A stretch of DNA of 64,000 nt. Source: an uncultured Armatimonadetes bacterium (lineage in GTDB: Bacteria; Armatimonadota; UBA5829; DTJY01). A program made the translations under genes and the position numbers. The stretch covers positions 2,400,001-2,464,000 of the forward strand of contig OY970325.1 in assembly GCA_963717145.1 (NCBI GenBank), written 5' to 3'. Numbering within the stretch: position 1 is the stretch's first letter; each line of letters opens with the position of its first letter. The notes beneath the pieces are model-generated. The model searched no databases. It worked only from the letters and a program-made list of their open reading frames with translations, and was not told the DNA's origin. Of this stretch, positions 15,080-22,165 are shown one piece after another.

Positions 15080-15108
15080 ATATTACAACAATCGCCCTTT
15101 CAGGTCAA
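15080..15108 (-). promoter_or_regulatory. Sigma70-type promoter
   Basis: TTGACC-N17-TAATAT. Confidence 0.55.
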
Positions 15109-16026
15109 TAACCCTTTTTCTTGCAGGCGCTCGACCTCCTCTCGTGTCGGCATGGAACGCTGCGCGCCGAGCCTGGTGACCGAGATCGCCGCCGCGCTGC
15201 AGGCAAACCCTGAAGCGGCCCGGATATCCATCCCGGATGAAAGTGCTACTCCCAACGCCCCGGTGAAGGCATCGCCCGCTGCGGTGGTATCGACGGCCTG
15301 GACCTTCGGCGCGGGTATGAACGTGTGCTCGCCCGCATCCACGACCAGAACACCCTTCGCTCCGAGCGTAAGTATGACGCTCTTCACGCCCATATCCACA
15401 AATCGCCTCACAACCGCCGGATCATCGGCCGGCTCATCGGCCTGCAGCCCGAGCAGATGCCTTGCCTCGGATTCATTGGGAAGCAGGACGTCCACCATCG
15501 CAAGCATATCCTTCGGAAGAGGACATGCCGGAGCGGGATTCAGGATCACTCGAACTCCCCGGTCGAATGCGAGCCGAACGGCGTGTTTCACCGTATCAAG
15601 CGGGACCTCGAGCTGGACGATGAGCGCATCGCACTCCGGGAGCACGTTCGCCGCACGGTCTACATCCCCCGGCGAGAGCGCTCCATTCGATCCGGGGGCG
15701 ACGGCGATCATGTTCTCCCCGCTGGAATCCACGAAAATCAGCGCCACTCCGGACGGCCTCTCGGGGTCTCGGACCACATATTCTGTTACGAGTCCTTCAC
15801 ATTCAAAGTTCCTGAGGGACGCGTCGCCGAAAACGTCGGATCCCACCCGAGCGACGAACACGACATCCGCGCCGAGCCGGGCCGCCGCGACGGCCTGGTT
15901 CGCGCCTTTCCCGCCGGGAACGGTGACGAACTCCCCGCCGATGACGGTCTCGCCCGGCATGGGCAGACGCCCGGTCTGCACCACCATATCGGTATTGCTC
16001 GACCCGACAACCATTATCTTGGACAC
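15100..16026 (-). CDS. rbsK: Ribokinase
   Basis: GSSNTD, GGKGANQAVAAARLG, NPAP, PNESE, DTTAAGDAF. Confidence 0.93.
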   Translation of the reverse strand: MSKIMVVGSSNTDMVVQTGRLPMPGETVIGGEFVTVPGGKGANQAVAAARLGADVVFVARVGSDVFGDASLRNFECEGLVTEYVVRDPERPSGVALIFVDSSGENMIAVAPGSNGALSPGDVDRAANVLPECDALIVQLEVPLDTVKHAVRLAFDRGVRVILNPAPACPLPKDMLAMVDVLLPNESEARHLLGLQADEPADDPAVVRRFVDMGVKSVILTLGAKGVLVVDAGEHTFIPAPKVQAVDTTAAGDAFTGALGVALSSGMDIRAASGFACSAAAISVTRLGAQRSMPTREEVERLQEKGLLT

Positions 16027-16039
16027 TAGCTAACCCCTC

Positions 16040-16445
16040 CGGGAAACACGAATCTCACGAATAAACGAATATCGGGAAAAACCCCGGAACCAGCCTGTAC
16101 TCGGCCGCAGGCTTGGTGCAGCAACGATAGCTCATACTCACAAGTACACGTTACACGAATGCAGAGCGAATCCTCGGGAAACACGAATCTCACGAATAAA
16201 CGAATATCGGGAAAAACCCCGGAACCAGCCTGTACTCGGCCGCAGGCTTGGTGCAGCAACGATAGCTCATACTCACAAGTACACGTTACACGAATGCAGA
16301 GCGAATCCTCGGGAAGACCCAAAAACCAGCTCGTGCTCATCGGCAAGCTCCGTTCAACAGCGATAGCTCATACTCACAAGTTGACGGTACACGAATGCAG
16401 AGCAGATCCCTCTTGATTCGTCCGTTCGTGTGATTCGTGTTTCCC
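16040..16445 (+). repeat. Left tandem array: two identical 135-bp units, one diverged unit, then an inverted end motif
   Basis: Units start at 16040, 16175, 16310; 16415-16445 is the reverse complement of the unit head. Confidence 0.92.
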
Positions 16446-16451
16446 TCGCCT

Positions 16452-16862
16452 TTACAGGACGATGCGCTTGTATTCGACCCTCTTCTTGCCGAAGTTGACT
16501 AGGATTCCCAGGCGCAGGCCGCTGGCTTTCAGATAGGAGAAGACCTGTGCCTCAAACAGGTCACTCAGTTCAGAAACAGCTTTCAACTCGACGATGATCG
16601 TTCCATCCACCACTATGTCGAGGCGGTAGTCGCCAACCTTGTCTCCCCTGTAATGGATTTCGATCGGCTTCTGACATTCGAAAGGGATTCCCAGATCCTC
16701 AAGCTCCCTGCATAGAACTCGCTCATAGACACTCTCCCCAAAGCCGGGACCCAATTCGTTGTGAACCGCAAACACAGCCGACATGAGTCGGTAAGACAGC
16801 TCAGCGTACAAGACGCGGTTCCCCAACTCAGATTGTTCCGTCTCCAGTCCCATTCGTGTCAT
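16452..16862 (-). CDS. GxxExxY protein (PD-(D/E)xK nuclease superfamily, PDDEXK_3)
   Basis: VHNELGPGFGESVY, DIVVD...IVELKAV, QVFSYLKAS...GILVNFG; start 16862 or 16853. Confidence 0.93.
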   Translation of the reverse strand: MTRMGLETEQSELGNRVLYAELSYRLMSAVFAVHNELGPGFGESVYERVLCRELEDLGIPFECQKPIEIHYRGDKVGDYRLDIVVDGTIIVELKAVSELSDLFEAQVFSYLKASGLRLGILVNFGKKRVEYKRIVL

Positions 16863-17181
16863 TCCCTCTCCATTCGTGTGCCGGTACCTTGAGAGCATGA
16901 GTTCCCGCAGCCGCAACGCCGGTTTTCCCCATACATTCGTCCATTCGTCTGATTCGTGTTTCCCTCTCCATTCGTGTGCCGGTACCTTGAGAGCATGAGT
17001 TCCCGCAGCCGCAACGCCGGTTTTCCCCATACATTCGTCCATTCGTCCGATTCGTGTTTCCCTCTCAATTCGTGTGCCGGTACCTTGAGAGCATGAGCCA
17101 TCGCCTGATAGCATGAGTTCCCGCGGTCCACAACGCCGGTTTTCCCCATACATTCGTCCATTCGTCTGATTCGTGTTTCCC
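16863..17181 (-). repeat. Right tandem array: 98, 98 and 119-bp units
   Basis: tccctctc at 16863, 16961, 17059; third unit carries a 20-nt insertion plus small changes. Confidence 0.92.
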
Positions 17182-17186
17182 CGGGT

Positions 17187-19559
17187 CTACGGCCAGGCTT
17201 CGTCCTCGCCGGCCAGTTCCTCGATGCGCGCCTCCCGCGAATAGACTCGTACCCGTGTCTGATCGGAGGCCGGGACCGTCACCTCGCCCACCATCCCGAG
17301 CTTCGAATGTCGCACCGTGAGCGTCTGATCCCGCATCGACGGGTTCACGAGCGTAAGCACCAGGTCGTCGTCCACCTCCTCGGTCGACTCGATCCATGAG
17401 CTGTCGAACACGTAGACCTCGCGGCTGTCCGCATCTATGACGATGTCACCGAACCCGTGGGTATACATGTCCGCGTAGAGTATCAGCCCGGCGCACCACG
17501 AATGTGCGAGCTGGAGCATCGAGCCCTTCGCGTGCGTCCAGTCGGTGTGGAACCACTGCTCCGTGATCATTCCCTTCCGCGCGTTGAAATCGCCGTCCGA
17601 GCGCGCGATGAACTGGTGGAAGCAAGCGAGATGATCCGCCGCGCGGCTGAGATAGTATGTGTCGCCCGTGTACTGCCACAAGCGGAGAAGCTCCGGGTGG
17701 CAGATCAGCCCGTAGTTGTGCAGGTGATTGTTCGATGGAGACGCAATGTCGGCGCCGAGCGTGCGGAAGTCGTACTTCCCGAGGATCGTGTCGTCCGCGA
17801 ACTGGGTGTTGTAGGTCCAGCGGAACGTCGCCACAAGGTCCGCCGCGTACTGCGCGAGTTCGAGCCACTTCTCATCCTGAGTCGCCTCGTAGAGATGAAC
17901 GCAGGCGATCAGCGCATTGTACGCGTCCTCAGAAGTCGGTGTGAGGTGGACATCCTCCGGTGCGCCATAGATGTACTCGTCCTCGATGAACCGCTTGTAG
18001 TACTCTCCCGCCTTGATCGCCGCGTCCCGATACGCGGTGTTGCCGGAATACTTCGCGCCCGCCAGGAGCGCCGGGATCCACATGATGCCGCCCGCGCCGT
18101 CCCATTCCTCGCACTGCCCGCTGTTGATGTTGTAGTACGAGCCGAAGTTCCCATCCTCGCGCTGGACCTTCAGGGCGAACTCGAGGTTCTTCTTCGCCGC
18201 CTCGGCCCAGTTGGGATGTGCCGCCGCTCCACCACCCTGTAGGGGCGTGCCTTGTGCCGCCTGAGACACCTCTGCGGGCGGCACAAGGCGCGCCCCTACA
18301 GGTGTCCCCTTCGCATATTCGAGCGCCTGGAAGTAGAACCAAGTCGCCTCGCTGACCGTCCGCGCCTGAATCCACTCCGGCTTGGGGTTCCAGCCGGTGC
18401 CCCAGCCGTTCTCCTGCGTCCACTCCGGATAGAAGAGCCCGCACGGAGAGATCCCCTCGTCCGCGATCTTGTTGAGCACCATCAATCCGGCTTCCGTGTA
18501 ATCTGTGTTCTGTACCCTCTCCCCGTACTTCCAGAGCGCGAAGGCATACGGAGCGCCGCTCACCCACGCGACGTGCATATGCGGGCGATCGACCTGCCCG
18601 GCCCCCTTGCCGAAGTACTTGTCGAACGCGCAGGTCTCGTAGAGCGCCTTCTGCTCCGGGTCATAGTGCCAGCGATGGAGTCCGTACGCCAGAAGCTCCT
18701 CGGCCTCCTCCATCGACACCCACGGGTTCGTCTCGTCCTCGGATGCATTGTAGATGTCGCGGATCAGGCCGTCGTACGCGTGGATGTCGCGCTCGTCGAC
18801 CATCGTGCTGAACGCGATCTGGACCGCTTCCCTGGGCATGACCGTCACGTCGAGGGCCTCGGGCGCGTTGGCATCCTCGCGGATAAAGCTGTATTTGACG
18901 GGCTCCTCCACGTAGGGGTAGTTGAGCATCAGGAACGTGCCGCTCGAATCGCCCCGGAATCCGACGCCGCTGTCGCCGTGGCTGAAGGGTTCGCGCGTCG
19001 CCAGACAAGTGGTCAGGTTGTCCGTCCAGCAGAAGACCGACGGGCAGGACGAGCGATCGGACCGGAACGCCCAGTAGTTCGAGACGAACTCATTGGGGTT
19101 GCCGCCCTCGAATGCGTATCGAGGATAACGTCGGACGCAACTCTCCGGGCGATTGTGCTTGTAGAACATCGCCGGCACCATCCACCTCGGGACGCCGGAA
19201 TCCGGCACGCGGAAGGCGATATGGAATCCGCACTCGATCGGATCCTCGCCGAGGTACGCGATCTGGATGCGCCATTCGAGCCGCTCGGCCATGTCTCCAG
19301 CGGGAACGATCCGCCCCTGGATCTGCCAGTCGTCCATCCCGGGGAACTCGCCGGTGAACTCCGCCATATCACCGGCGGACGCGCGCTTAATCGCCGCAGG
19401 TACCCGCTGGTCGCCGATGCGGATTGAGAGGAAGCTCTCCCCGCGCAACGCCGGGACCTCGCCCGTCTCGCGCTGATGGTAAATATTCGGGATGAGGGAA
19501 TCGCCCGGACCGGACTCGAAAGCAAGCTTGGTGTTACCGTGGATGAGGGTGGAATCCAT
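17187..19559 (-). CDS. Large uncharacterised protein, probable (alpha/alpha)-toroid glycoside hydrolase/epimerase-like fold
   Basis: AGGAGG RBS; repeated helical hairpin motifs (QREDGNF, YEATQDEKWLELA, YTGDTYYL); Trp/Tyr rich. Confidence 0.7.
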   Translation of the reverse strand: MDSTLIHGNTKLAFESGPGDSLIPNIYHQRETGEVPALRGESFLSIRIGDQRVPAAIKRASAGDMAEFTGEFPGMDDWQIQGRIVPAGDMAERLEWRIQIAYLGEDPIECGFHIAFRVPDSGVPRWMVPAMFYKHNRPESCVRRYPRYAFEGGNPNEFVSNYWAFRSDRSSCPSVFCWTDNLTTCLATREPFSHGDSGVGFRGDSSGTFLMLNYPYVEEPVKYSFIREDANAPEALDVTVMPREAVQIAFSTMVDERDIHAYDGLIRDIYNASEDETNPWVSMEEAEELLAYGLHRWHYDPEQKALYETCAFDKYFGKGAGQVDRPHMHVAWVSGAPYAFALWKYGERVQNTDYTEAGLMVLNKIADEGISPCGLFYPEWTQENGWGTGWNPKPEWIQARTVSEATWFYFQALEYAKGTPVGARLVPPAEVSQAAQGTPLQGGGAAAHPNWAEAAKKNLEFALKVQREDGNFGSYYNINSGQCEEWDGAGGIMWIPALLAGAKYSGNTAYRDAAIKAGEYYKRFIEDEYIYGAPEDVHLTPTSEDAYNALIACVHLYEATQDEKWLELAQYAADLVATFRWTYNTQFADDTILGKYDFRTLGADIASPSNNHLHNYGLICHPELLRLWQYTGDTYYLSRAADHLACFHQFIARSDGDFNARKGMITEQWFHTDWTHAKGSMLQLAHSWCAGLILYADMYTHGFGDIVIDADSREVYVFDSSWIESTEEVDDDLVLTLVNPSMRDQTLTVRHSKLGMVGEVTVPASDQTRVRVYSREARIEELAGEDEAWP
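18238..18300. repeat. GTAG-type REP doublet inserted in frame within a CDS (63 bp)
   Basis: tgtaggggcgtgccttgtgccgcc...gggcggcacaaggcgcgcccctaca. Confidence 0.85.
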
Positions 19560-19584
19560 GAAAAGGCCTCCTTGCTGCTTGAGG

Positions 19585-19613
19585 ATTATACCGCCGGGAG
19601 TACCCTCTGTCAA
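19585..19613 (-). promoter_or_regulatory. Consensus sigma70 promoter
   Basis: TTGACA-N17-TATAAT, perfect match. Confidence 0.85.
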
Positions 19614-19634
19614 ACCAGCCCGTCACGTCCGGCC

Positions 19635-19663
19635 TTGCGGTGGGATTGCCGGTGGAGTACAAT
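19635..19663 (+). promoter_or_regulatory. Divergent sigma70-type promoter for the kdpD-like gene
   Basis: TTGCGG-N17-TACAAT. Confidence 0.5.
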
Positions 19664-19679
19664 GTGGCGGGGGGACGCT

Positions 19680-21321
19680 ATGAATGCGGTCAGGGCATGG
19701 ATCGAGCGACATGGGTATCCGTTCGCGGTGGTGTGCATCGCGGCGGCGACGACGATCTTCTACCCCGGTCGCGCCTACTTCGCGAAGGGGCAGTGGGCTC
19801 TTCTCTATCTGCCGGTGATCGTACTGGTGGCGAGCGCGAGTGGCGTAACACCGGCCCTTGTGGCCGCGATACTCGCGTTCCTGTCGTGGAACTTCTTCTT
19901 CCTACCCCCGTACCACACGTTTATCATCGCAGATCCCAAGGACCTGATCTCGCTCTTCGTCTTCCTGCTCGTCGGGGTCGCGATGGGCCTGCAGACGGGA
20001 CGCATGAGGGCGCGCGAGACCCAGGCGCTGATCGGCGAGCGGGAGGCCACGCTGCTGAACCGATTCAGTTCCCACCTGGTCACGGAGATGAACACCGCCG
20101 GCTTGACGGACATGCTCCTCGGCGAGATCGCCTCCACGATAGGCGCCGATAAGGCGGCCCTCTATCTCTCGGACGACGAAGGGGAGTTCGCCTGCGCAGG
20201 GAAGTCGCCGGCGCTGATCGCCGAACCGGACGAGACGATCGACGATCTGGCGGCATGGGTCTACGAGCGCGCCAAGGCGATCGGTCTGCCTGCCGATAAG
20301 AGCGCGATGGGAGAGGACGCTTGGCCGATATCCGTGAGCCACGACGAGGTGTCACCCGGGATGACCCTCACCCCAACCCTCTCCCTCGAAGGGAGAGGGG
20401 GCGCAGAACTCCCTCTCCCTTCGAGGGAGAGGGTTGGGGTGAGGGTCAACCGGAGGGACATCCTGCTCCCCCTGCAGTCAGCATCGCGCGTGGAGGGAGT
20501 GCTCTACGTCGGCCCGAAGCGGAACGCGGCGCAGTACGATCCCCATGATGCAAGGCTGCTCGTCTCGATTGTGAACCAGGCGGCGGCGTTCCGGGAGCGA
20601 CGGCGGCTTCAACACGTCGCGAGCCGGGCCGAGGCGCTCCACGAGGCGGATCGGCTGAAGTCGGCGTTCCTCTCCTCCATCTCACACGAGTTGAAGACTC
20701 CCCTCGCCTCGGTAACGGCGACAATCACAGGCTTGCTCGAAGAAGACGTGGGCTGGGATACTGAGATGATACGCCAGGAACTCGGCGCTATCAGCGAGGA
20801 CCTGGATCGCCTGAACGACAGCATCAGCGCACTGCTCGATCTCTCCCGGCTGGAATCGGACGCGTGGTCTCCTCAAAGGGAGTGGTACGAGATCGGAGAC
20901 ATAGTCGGCTCGGCGGTCTCGAAGGTGCCTCAAAAGCAGCGGGACCGGATCAGCTTCCTGGTGCCCAGCGATCTTCCACCAATCCATGTCGACTTCCGAC
21001 AATGGGCTCGGGCGCTCCAGAATCTGCTCGAGAATGCGCTGGCCTACAGCGACCCCGACCGAGCCGGTGTTGATCGGAGCATCGGCGGATGACCGAGAGG
21101 TGCGCATCTGGGTCGAAGATCGCGGTCCCGGGATCGCCACGGAGGAGCGGACGAGGATCTTCGAGAAGTTCTACCGTGGCGCGGCCTCCGAGAAGGTGCC
21201 TTCGGGCACGGGTCTCGGGCTGGCGATTGCTCGGGAGATAGTCGACTCGCACGGCGGAAGCATCTTCGTCGAGGATGCCGAGCCGCACGGGTCGCGGTTT
21301 GTGATCGTGCTGCCGGCGTAG
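19680..21321 (+). pseudogene. kdpD: Short KdpD-like sensor histidine kinase (DUF4118 TM-GAF-HisKA-HATPase), frameshifted near 21055 (real or sequencing error)
   Basis: WNFFFLPPYHTF; SISHELKTPL; NLLENALAYS, then DRGPGI...FEKFYR...GTGLGLAI in the next frame. Confidence 0.75.
20362..20448. repeat. Perfect 38-bp-arm palindrome (CCCTCACCCCAACCCTCTCCC-type) in frame within kdpD
   Basis: 87 bp = 29 codons; arms are exact reverse complements around an 11-nt loop. Confidence 0.9.
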
Positions 21322-21455
21322 TGGCCGTGCCTCAGTGCCGGCCCACCACGTGTCGCGACATGGCCGGCACTGAGGCACGGCCACTGCAGTGAGGAACGAT
21401 GGGGATACCCGAGAAACGGCTGAAGACATGGCCGGCACAGAGGCACGGCCACTAC
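21318..21455. repeat. Family C REP doublet plus a duplicated arm (68-bp direct repeat including the kdpE 5' end)
   Basis: tggccggcac at 21361 and 21429. Confidence 0.85.
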
Positions 21456-21466
21456 AGTGAGGAACG

Positions 21467-22165
21467 ATGGGAATACCAGAGAAGCGGCTGAAGATCCTGG
21501 TGATCGACGATGAGGAGCAGATCCGGCGGGCGCTGAAGTCCATCCTCAGCGTACGGCACTACGACGTGATCCTCGCCACAAACGGGGACGAAGGCCTCGA
21601 CCTGGCCATCGACCATACGCCGGACCTGGTGATCCTGGACATATCGATGCCGGGGATGAGCGGGCTGGAGGTCTGCCGGGAATTGCGCGCCTGGTACAAC
21701 GGGCCGATCCTGGTGCTCTCGGTCCGCTCCGATGACGCAGACAAGATAAGCGCCCTCGACCTGGGAGCGGACGACTACCTCACGAAACCGTTCTCGGCGG
21801 GCGAACTGCTGGCTCGGATCCGGGCACTCCTGCGTCGGGCTTCCGGAGTCCCCGCGTCGCCGCCGGTGATATCCGCAGGGGACCTGGAGATCGACATCGC
21901 CACCCGCCGCGTGACCCGGGCGGGAGACGAGATCGAACTGACCCGGACCGAGTTCGACATCCTCGCCTACCTCGCACAGAATGCGGACCGAGTCGTGACC
22001 TCGAAGATGATCCTGGAGCACGTCTGGGGGCCCGAATACGGCGAGGACACCCAGACGCTGCGGGTACACGTCAGCCATCTGCGCAAGAAGATCGAGCCCC
22101 ACTCCGCAGTCCCGAAGTACATCCTCACCGAACCGGGCGTCGGCTTCCGGTTCTCCCTGTCCTGA
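21467..22165 (+). CDS. kdpE: KdpE-like OmpR-family response regulator
   Basis: REC domain (IDDE, LDISMP, LGADDYLTKPF) plus wHTH VWGPEY...LRVHVSHLRKKIE...YILTEPGVGFRF. Confidence 0.85.
   Translation: MGIPEKRLKILVIDDEEQIRRALKSILSVRHYDVILATNGDEGLDLAIDHTPDLVILDISMPGMSGLEVCRELRAWYNGPILVLSVRSDDADKISALDLGADDYLTKPFSAGELLARIRALLRRASGVPASPPVISAGDLEIDIATRRVTRAGDEIELTRTEFDILAYLAQNADRVVTSKMILEHVWGPEYGEDTQTLRVHVSHLRKKIEPHSAVPKYILTEPGVGFRFSLS

Follow-up and report, generated by a model that had tools for sequence, protein, structure and literature searches.

Between the ribokinase gene rbsK and the gene upstream of it, the genome of an uncultured Armatimonadetes bacterium carries a small GxxExxY gene enclosed by two arrays of homologous repeats in opposite orientations. 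This arrangement raises the question of whether the island is a mobile element and, if so, what its putative nuclease has to do with the repeats. An earlier note on the window (the whole stretch of 64,000 nucleotides analyzed) had proposed a compact nuclease-plus-repeat module, either mobile, with ends that the nuclease recognizes and amplifies, or producing structured RNAs from its arrays.

Anatomy and insertion of the island

The locus has the following layout, in window coordinates.

15100..16026, minus strand: rbsK (ribokinase), downstream host gene (TIGR02152, 353 bits; GTG at 16026)
16041..17181, no strand: whole island, outer to outer terminal repeat, between the gene of 789 to 808 aa and rbsK
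16040..16174, plus strand: left arm, copy 1, 135 bp
16175..16309, plus strand: left arm, copy 2, in tandem with copy 1 and 100% identical to it
16310..16410, plus strand: left arm, copy 3, diverged, older and partial (78% over 102 nt), without the terminal triplet
16416..16445, minus strand: extra terminal ACGAAT triplet, directly past the nuclease stop and inverted relative to the left arms
16452..16862, minus strand: GxxExxY/PDDEXK_3 nuclease gene, 136 aa (ATG at 16862) or 133 aa (ATG at 16853)
16862..16959, minus strand: right arm, inner copy, 98 bp, middle shortened
16960..17057, minus strand: right arm, second copy, 98 bp, 99% identical to the inner copy, with one base different
17058..17181, minus strand: right arm, outer full-length copy, whose terminal box ends 6 nt from the upstream stop codon
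17187..19613, minus strand: upstream host gene, weak GH127-like match below the cut-off, stop codon at 17187-17189

Left arm copy 1 contains, in this order, a terminal box (GGGAAAC followed by three ACGAAT hexamers at spacings of 9 and 8), a purine run, a variable middle, a CTCAT.CTC.CAAG box, and an inner ACACGAAT. The earlier note had described two identical left units of 135 bp with a diverged third and three right units of 98, 98, and 119 bp, and this description held in full: the right units start at 16862, 16960, and ca. 17058-17079 (spacing of 98 and 119), and the boxes that it had listed as common to the left and the reverse-complemented right units are reflected in 70 to 77% complementarity between the arms across these boxes. 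The arrays lie where it had placed them; a further terminal box, at 16416-16445, had been missed. The start region of the nuclease gene lies within the inner end of the right arm. As also described, the island has inverted ends, with GGGAAACACGAATC at 16041-16054 and its reverse complement at 17168-17181, and fits between the upstream stop codon and the rbsK ribosome binding site (RBS) (GGAGGGG at 16040-16034), which abuts the island end. The island and its arrays are real.

The sequence ccggg, noticed earlier at both junctions, is indeed present (16039-16043 and 17181-17185), but we rejected it as a target duplication because it overlaps the terminal repeats and is absent from the orthologous island and, by eye, from the other copies. 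No target-site duplication was visible by eye at the island or at family copies, where the sites are old and the genomes with empty sites share just 63 to 66% protein identity. An open frame through the right array (233 aa; 196 aa in the protein collection) was read as a by-product because the closest homologues of the nuclease have 133 aa. A promoter and terminator scan gave 2 and 3 sites versus 0.7 and 1.2 expected and was uninformative.

In a search of 41 genomes, seven had the upstream gene. Three of them (G010, G009, and G007; 63 to 66% protein identity) have the empty sites for which the earlier note had suggested searching: the upstream gene overlaps or adjoins rbsK, and there is no island. 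The island is an insertion, since in these three relatives both neighbor genes are joined without it. The nearest relative (G001; 81%) does have the island, with a single arm on each side; its nuclease gene, 67% identical to that of the window, is frameshifted. Thus, the cassette entered the operon at the stop/start junction in an ancestor of this genome (G000) and its nearest relative.

The 100% identity of the 135-bp copies might indicate that the exact duplicates are an artefact of assembly, which would affect the copy number and not the element. However, the assembly is a single 5.37-Mb contig, the 98-bp copies differ by one base, and diverged tandem arms are also present elsewhere in this genome and in further genomes, so that we consider an artefact highly improbable. 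Contigs assembled from four read runs, all of relatives, do not span the stretch; one contig of run X4 joins the left arm, part of the gene, and the right arm, and the low cover over the nuclease gene in run X3 is not interpretable.

Other repeats were seen near the island. A GTAG-tagged REP-like pair lies in frame inside the upstream gene (ca. 18240-18300) and adds ca. 29 residues, because homologues align as residues 1-416 and 446-789. Within the gene at 19476-21092 (plus strand), which we take to encode a KdpD-like kinase, the stretch TLTPTLSLEGRGGAELPLPSRERVGVRV resembles an in-frame insertion of a hairpin repeat, and a 68-bp tandem duplication at 21357-21494, with a REP-like hairpin, overlaps the start of the response regulator gene.

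The dispersed arm family and its turnover

We searched the 5.37-Mb genome with the terminal-box pattern GAAAC-ACGAAT-nnn-ACGAAT-nn-RCGAAT, allowing up to 4 mismatches, and obtained 43 matches in 22 clusters. The unit had been presented as a local repeat; the arrays are real, but the unit belongs to a genome-wide family. Twelve of the 22 clusters are inverted pairs, 11 of them gene-less and spanning 65 to 417 bp. The island is the gene-bearing copy of this family, its gene lying between inverted arms that terminate in three to four phased hexamers (here ACGAAT), and gene-less arm pairs with the same ends are found at ca. 20 other intergenic sites. In an alignment of 29 arms (mean column identity of ca. 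67%), the triplet is fixed and the inner CACGAAT invariant; the middle is variable and the CTCAT..CAAG box less strict.

Tandem arm duplications of 113 to 123 bp are also present at clusters 3, 15, 19, 21, and 22, where, by eye, they restart at the outer terminus, and one GxxExxY homologue has five 43-bp arms in tandem. The three-unit arrays here are likewise the local tandem duplication of a single arm of ca. 115 bp. As a design feature, three copies per side did not hold up: the nearest relative has just a single arm on either side, and a minimal cassette of ca. 480 bp, which fills the space between the fmt stop codon and the RBS of a sugar kinase gene, makes do with a run of four ACGAAT units per side spaced by 8 to 10 bp.

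The second proposal of the earlier note was that the tandem units are processed into structured RNAs loaded on the nuclease. Their length (100 to 135 nt), the fixed boxes around a variable middle, and the position of the island inside an operon would suit such RNAs. However, four single units folded with z scores from −0.75 to +1.74, that is, with no stable structure; the 29 aligned arms had 0 consensus base pairs, and no Rfam match was found. The repeats differ little or not at all and are not separated by unique spacers; in this, as in the lack of a conserved RNA fold, they differ from guide-RNA or CRISPR-like arrays. Besides, the inner box pattern was found at only 9 of 237 loci, all in this genome and its nearest relative, and such RNAs would not fit into minimal cassettes. 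An RNA-guided or RNA-associated system is accordingly the least probable of all the explanations weighed. Single arms also contain neither a GTAG/CGTC tag nor a short palindromic unit.

Comparison with the nearest relative gave an idea of the age of the family. Of six gene-less sites of G001, four have an occupied ortholog in G000, a fifth is vacant there, and the sixth could not be matched by its flanks. Two more sites were compared starting from G000: the first is empty in G001, while the second is occupied by an element of the CGCTGA type that matches a paralogue in G001. Five sites persist between the two genera, and at one intergenic slot differing motif families replace each other. These retained, empty, and replaced slots indicate persistence of elements across genera with slow turnover. 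Nothing points to recent long-range movement, since the dispersed arms are only ca. 67% alike and four gene-less sites are common to both genomes. Broken GxxExxY cassettes occur as well. At G000:C1:4204880-4205660 and 366640-367330, the G001 counterpart is a GxxExxY cassette (L014 and L168), and the same two G000 slots hold a REP-flanked RAYT-like gene or a nucleotidyltransferase/HEPN-like pair (names from sequence reading alone).

Arms are located at stop codons and ahead of RBSs or promoters. By eye, some of them (G000 clusters 7, 11, 13, 15, and 21 and G001 locus L163) end a few bases upstream of −35/−10-like sequences. A separate short-hairpin family with ACGAAT runs of 8-bp period (CGAATA..AACGAATAAACGAAT) was also observed at G000:C1:1767091, 2399059, 3271722, 3854220, and 4041197, and no matching gene was identified for these five sites.

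Arm motifs and protein groups across genomes

The genome carries three GxxExxY genes, ca. 44% identical to each other when used as queries, and the two other paralogues are bracketed by inverted runs of CAGGAA and CAC(A/G)GAA, respectively. Loose patterns for the three motifs (ACGAAT first) had 46, 41, and 69 matches in 26, 23, and 34 clusters, versus 0, 1, and 1 in the reversed genome, which for the ACGAAT-type pair is not chance; each paralogue motif thus has its own dispersed copies. Around 20 of the 23 CAGGAA clusters sit, by eye, directly inside CAC(A/G)GA-type arms at near-constant spacing (e.g., G000:C1 425621-425804, 693647-693824, and 4874705-4874939), often with a third, GGGAGAAT-type repeat within. 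Either ordered nesting or spread as a composite would explain this arrangement.

In order to put the association of motif and protein into perspective, we surveyed 173 distinct genes using a profile of close homologues (core, from residue 16), with counts made by hand on loci that are kin, picked by similarity, and regardless of relatedness. There were 48 genes with at least 155 bits; setting aside the window gene and 12 with a flank of <150 nt, 35 remained, of which 33 had ACGAAT chains on both sides, one had GCGAAT, and one had none. Among the 12 with short flanks, ACGAAT was on both sides in 7. The 60 distant cellular genes (<120 bits) gave no ACGAAT, another shared hexamer in 36 cases, and no two-sided motif in 24, and distant viral loci (L128 to L157; 19 distinct genes) gave 15 without a call and 4 weak AT-rich calls. 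Of the boxes for which the earlier note had suggested testing GxxExxY loci of related genomes, the terminal motif is found there, while the inner boxes are restricted to loci of G000 and G001.

The dispersed copies showed a similar correspondence. Genomes G041 and G042, with an ACGAAT gene, have 78 and 97 ACGAAT pairs and no CACTAAT pairs, while G044 and G045, with a CACTAAT gene, have 15 and 21 CACTAAT pairs and only 2 and 1 ACGAAT pairs. Exact CGCTGAGA..CTGAA sites numbered 6, 11, 5, and 6 among the matches listed for four genomes with a CGCTGA-type gene and 0 in G000. In G100, whose gene has 10/10-spaced arms, there are 11 triplets of that spacing, and ACACGAAT pairs were found 41 times in G000, 12 times in G001, and once each in three genomes, with 0 in 36 of 41. 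The reciprocal results for G041 to G045, the CGCTGA counts, and the G100 spacing fit gene-matched repeat families. Such a match would also follow from plain co-inheritance of gene and arms.

The correspondence has exceptions. Among 12 genomes with at least 10 CRCGAAA pairs, GxxExxY matches are lacking in 2, and those found in 3 more all have other arms; the complete genome G174 has 17 ACGAAT triplets, yet both its genes have other arms. In G001, 12 motif pairs are retained alongside the frameshifted gene. Repeats outlasting their gene, as in G001, or another mobilizer could account for repeats without a matching gene.

Neighbors differed in 6 of 6 close homologous cassettes checked. Among 201 genomes of the phylum, only G000 scored better than 1e-50 with the close-homologue profile, and the named close homologues are from Chloroflexota, which suggests that the gene was gained laterally.

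A domesticated host function is another way to read this distribution, with the arrays recognized by the protein as marks, either for control of recombination or DNA uptake or for transcript processing at operon junctions, and with mobility ancient or incidental. The five persisting sites would agree with it, as would the placement of arms at stop codons and before RBSs or promoters, and the gene is on just 8 plasmid records out of 72,556 and on none of 50,697 phage records, as with domesticated RAYTs in the passages of PMC5581495 that deal with them. However, the patchy occurrence within the phylum, the unrelated neighbors of the cassettes, the broken copies, and the replacement of motif families at one slot make domestication quite improbable.

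Two observations on related loci may be added. On a 16-kb viral contig (L240 and L241), single arms from several motif families are stacked between phage structural genes and fill the spacers there; all of them run along the direction of transcription and begin right past stop codons. Many close homologues start with TN-rich or HEWTN peptides; these starts are the translated own ACGAAT arm, and annotated N termini therefore contain repeat sequence.

A predicted Cas4-type nuclease and its own repeats

The PD-(D/E)xK assignment made in the earlier note was sound. The protein matches only the GxxExxY/PDDEXK_3 family, over residues 20 to 134, well above the cut-offs (TIGR04256, 142.3 bits versus 35; PF13366/PDDEXK_3, 136.1 versus 22). 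Across 50 motif-diverse proteins (residues numbered from 16859), G39, E42, and Y45 of the GxxExxY motif are invariant, as are D81, E91, K93, and Y109, with Q105 nearly so, and the active site is intact. E42, D81, E91-x-K93, and Q105-xxx-Y109 fit RecB motifs I to III plus QhXXY, an assignment made by pattern rather than structural superposition. The AlphaFold model (pLDDT of 91) matched Cas4 SSO0001 best (E of 3e-4; Z of 8.1, rmsd of 4.3, 100 aligned); other RecB-like nucleases also match, the Z of 8.1 is barely above the other PD-(D/E)XK rows, and the scores are at a level common among PD-(D/E)XK folds. No solved structure was related by sequence at E values up to 1, and the structure atlas gave no usable look-alike outside PF13366. 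Together, motifs and model predict a minimal RecB/Cas4-type nuclease.

The likeness to Cas4/RecB (SSO0001, PDB 4ic1) covers the fold and the motifs E...D...ExK...QxxxY, as laid out in the relevant passages of PMC4176176, according to which Cas4 needs QhXXY and motifs I to III to cut single-stranded DNA. Unlike the Cas4 proteins described there, with four Fe-S cysteines and 171 to 362 aa, the protein here has ca. 135 aa and no adjacent cas genes, and no conserved cysteine of an Fe-S set was found among 60 close homologues.

Our preferred reading, to which we give a probability of roughly 0.6, is a slow mobile element family with a partnership like that of RAYT and REP or of Ssn and its repeats, in which an unrelated enzyme recognizes its own motif and the arms are copied with the help of host repair. 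Several 14-kDa protomers would bind the phased hexamers, and one strand would be cut at the outer end or close to it, with single-stranded or fold-back DNA as the probable substrate. The repair machinery of the host would then duplicate the arm in situ, producing the 135- and 98-bp arrays, and would rarely seed an arm copy at a new site, while internal deletion would leave gene-less copies able to outlast the gene. We know of no strand-joining chemistry for a hydrolytic nuclease. The mobile module of the earlier note is borne out by the empty sites, the differing neighbors, and a motif that tracks the protein group; from these and the conserved active site we infer that the GxxExxY protein does the cutting and moving, including recognition and amplification of the ends.

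The main rival is that another agent, be it a route of host repair or an unlinked transposase, copies the arms, with GxxExxY as a passenger and the motif match due to co-inheritance. Repeats without a matching gene would be expected in that case, and several kinds of cassette are attracted to the same intergenic slots. In addition, two arms far apart enclose 3.6 kb with unrelated host genes: at G000:C1:3409600-3413207 (L243), two single inverted ACGAAT arms lie around a 246-aa unknown gene and a GH65-like gene, possibly a composite element carrying cargo. In Geobacter metallireducens, ISGme8/9 elements are reported at fixed distances from paired tandem-repeat sites (PMC2700814, supplement legend). 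However, GxxExxY is the only nuclease-like gene catalogued inside ACGAAT arms, its catalytic residues are invariant, and three paralogues with three separate motifs are kept in one genome. The ISKra4-type MITE of this genome, tried as a relative of the arms, has unrelated ends. On balance, we regard a mere passenger as unlikely.

The slow mobile element that we favor has parallels among known systems. RAYT (TnpA-REP) genes with REP/REPIN/BIME or long terminal inverted repeats make up REPtrons and TIRtrons, and, judging from the corresponding passages of PMC3733652 and PMC5581495, these resemble our family in several ways: a small gene, present as a single copy, lies between inverted repeats that are also dispersed in gene-less form; a genome can have several enzymes, each with its own repeat; and both form tandem clusters and are rare on plasmids. 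As in REPINs, inverted doublets fold back (z of −13.2 for the one whole gene-less pair folded; 12 of the 22 clusters are inverted pairs). In contrast to the HUH/Y1 transposase of RAYTs, the enzyme here is of the PD-(D/E)XK RecB/Cas4 type, and the units are untagged, phased hexamer runs instead of the GTAG-tagged palindromes of REPs. Family scans of the protein gave no HUH/Y1 transposase, GIY-YIG domain, or other known transposase.

Ssn, as presented in parts of PMC11893778, is likewise a small single-domain nuclease whose own repeat (NTS/SRM) is both flanking and dispersed, with homologue-specific variants; there too, mobility has been proposed, and a role in control of recombination or DNA uptake is reported. 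It differs in being a GIY-YIG enzyme with a hairpin motif of 20 to 50 nt, whereas our enzyme is unrelated and its single arms are unstructured. Insertion sequences and their MITEs resemble the family in terminal inverted repeats, gene-bearing and gene-less copies, and empty sites in relatives, but here there is no DDE or known transposase, no target duplication was seen, and there are no near-identical dispersed copies. The paired octa- and heptanucleotide sites of G. metallireducens also are runs of 4 to 5 short motifs on opposite strands at variable distance; their sequences are different, they are read there as regulator binding sites, and the passages and legends consulted in PMC2700814 contain no link to a nuclease.

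PF13366 is listed as “Unknown” in the consulted part of a 2012 survey (PMC3424549), and “GxxExxY” appears, in the text passages found, in a passing mention beside a gene that another tool named cas4. The literature searched, which covered few subscription papers, held no description of a link between GxxExxY and repeats, and a family of elements combining a nuclease with its own repeat is apparently undescribed.

More tentatively, and at somewhat less than even odds, GxxExxY may be a large family of sequence-specific, Cas4-like nucleases of ca. 130 residues with a hexamer code (ACGAAT, CAGGAA, CACGGAA, CGCTGA, CACTAAT, and others), each mobilizing its own repeat class by transposase-free cutting and host repair, with several orthogonal systems per cell. 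The value of this genome lies in the empty sites at the locus and in three motif-specific systems in one cell; since the three paralogues are intact and have three motifs, specificity is addressable within one genome. With its many natural motif variants, such a family of 14-kDa nucleases could serve as a tool. If true, our reading would give a function to a widespread “unknown” family, explain a common class of bacterial intergenic repeats, and add a third, unrelated enzyme chemistry to the pattern of a small gene with its own repeat represented by RAYT and Ssn.
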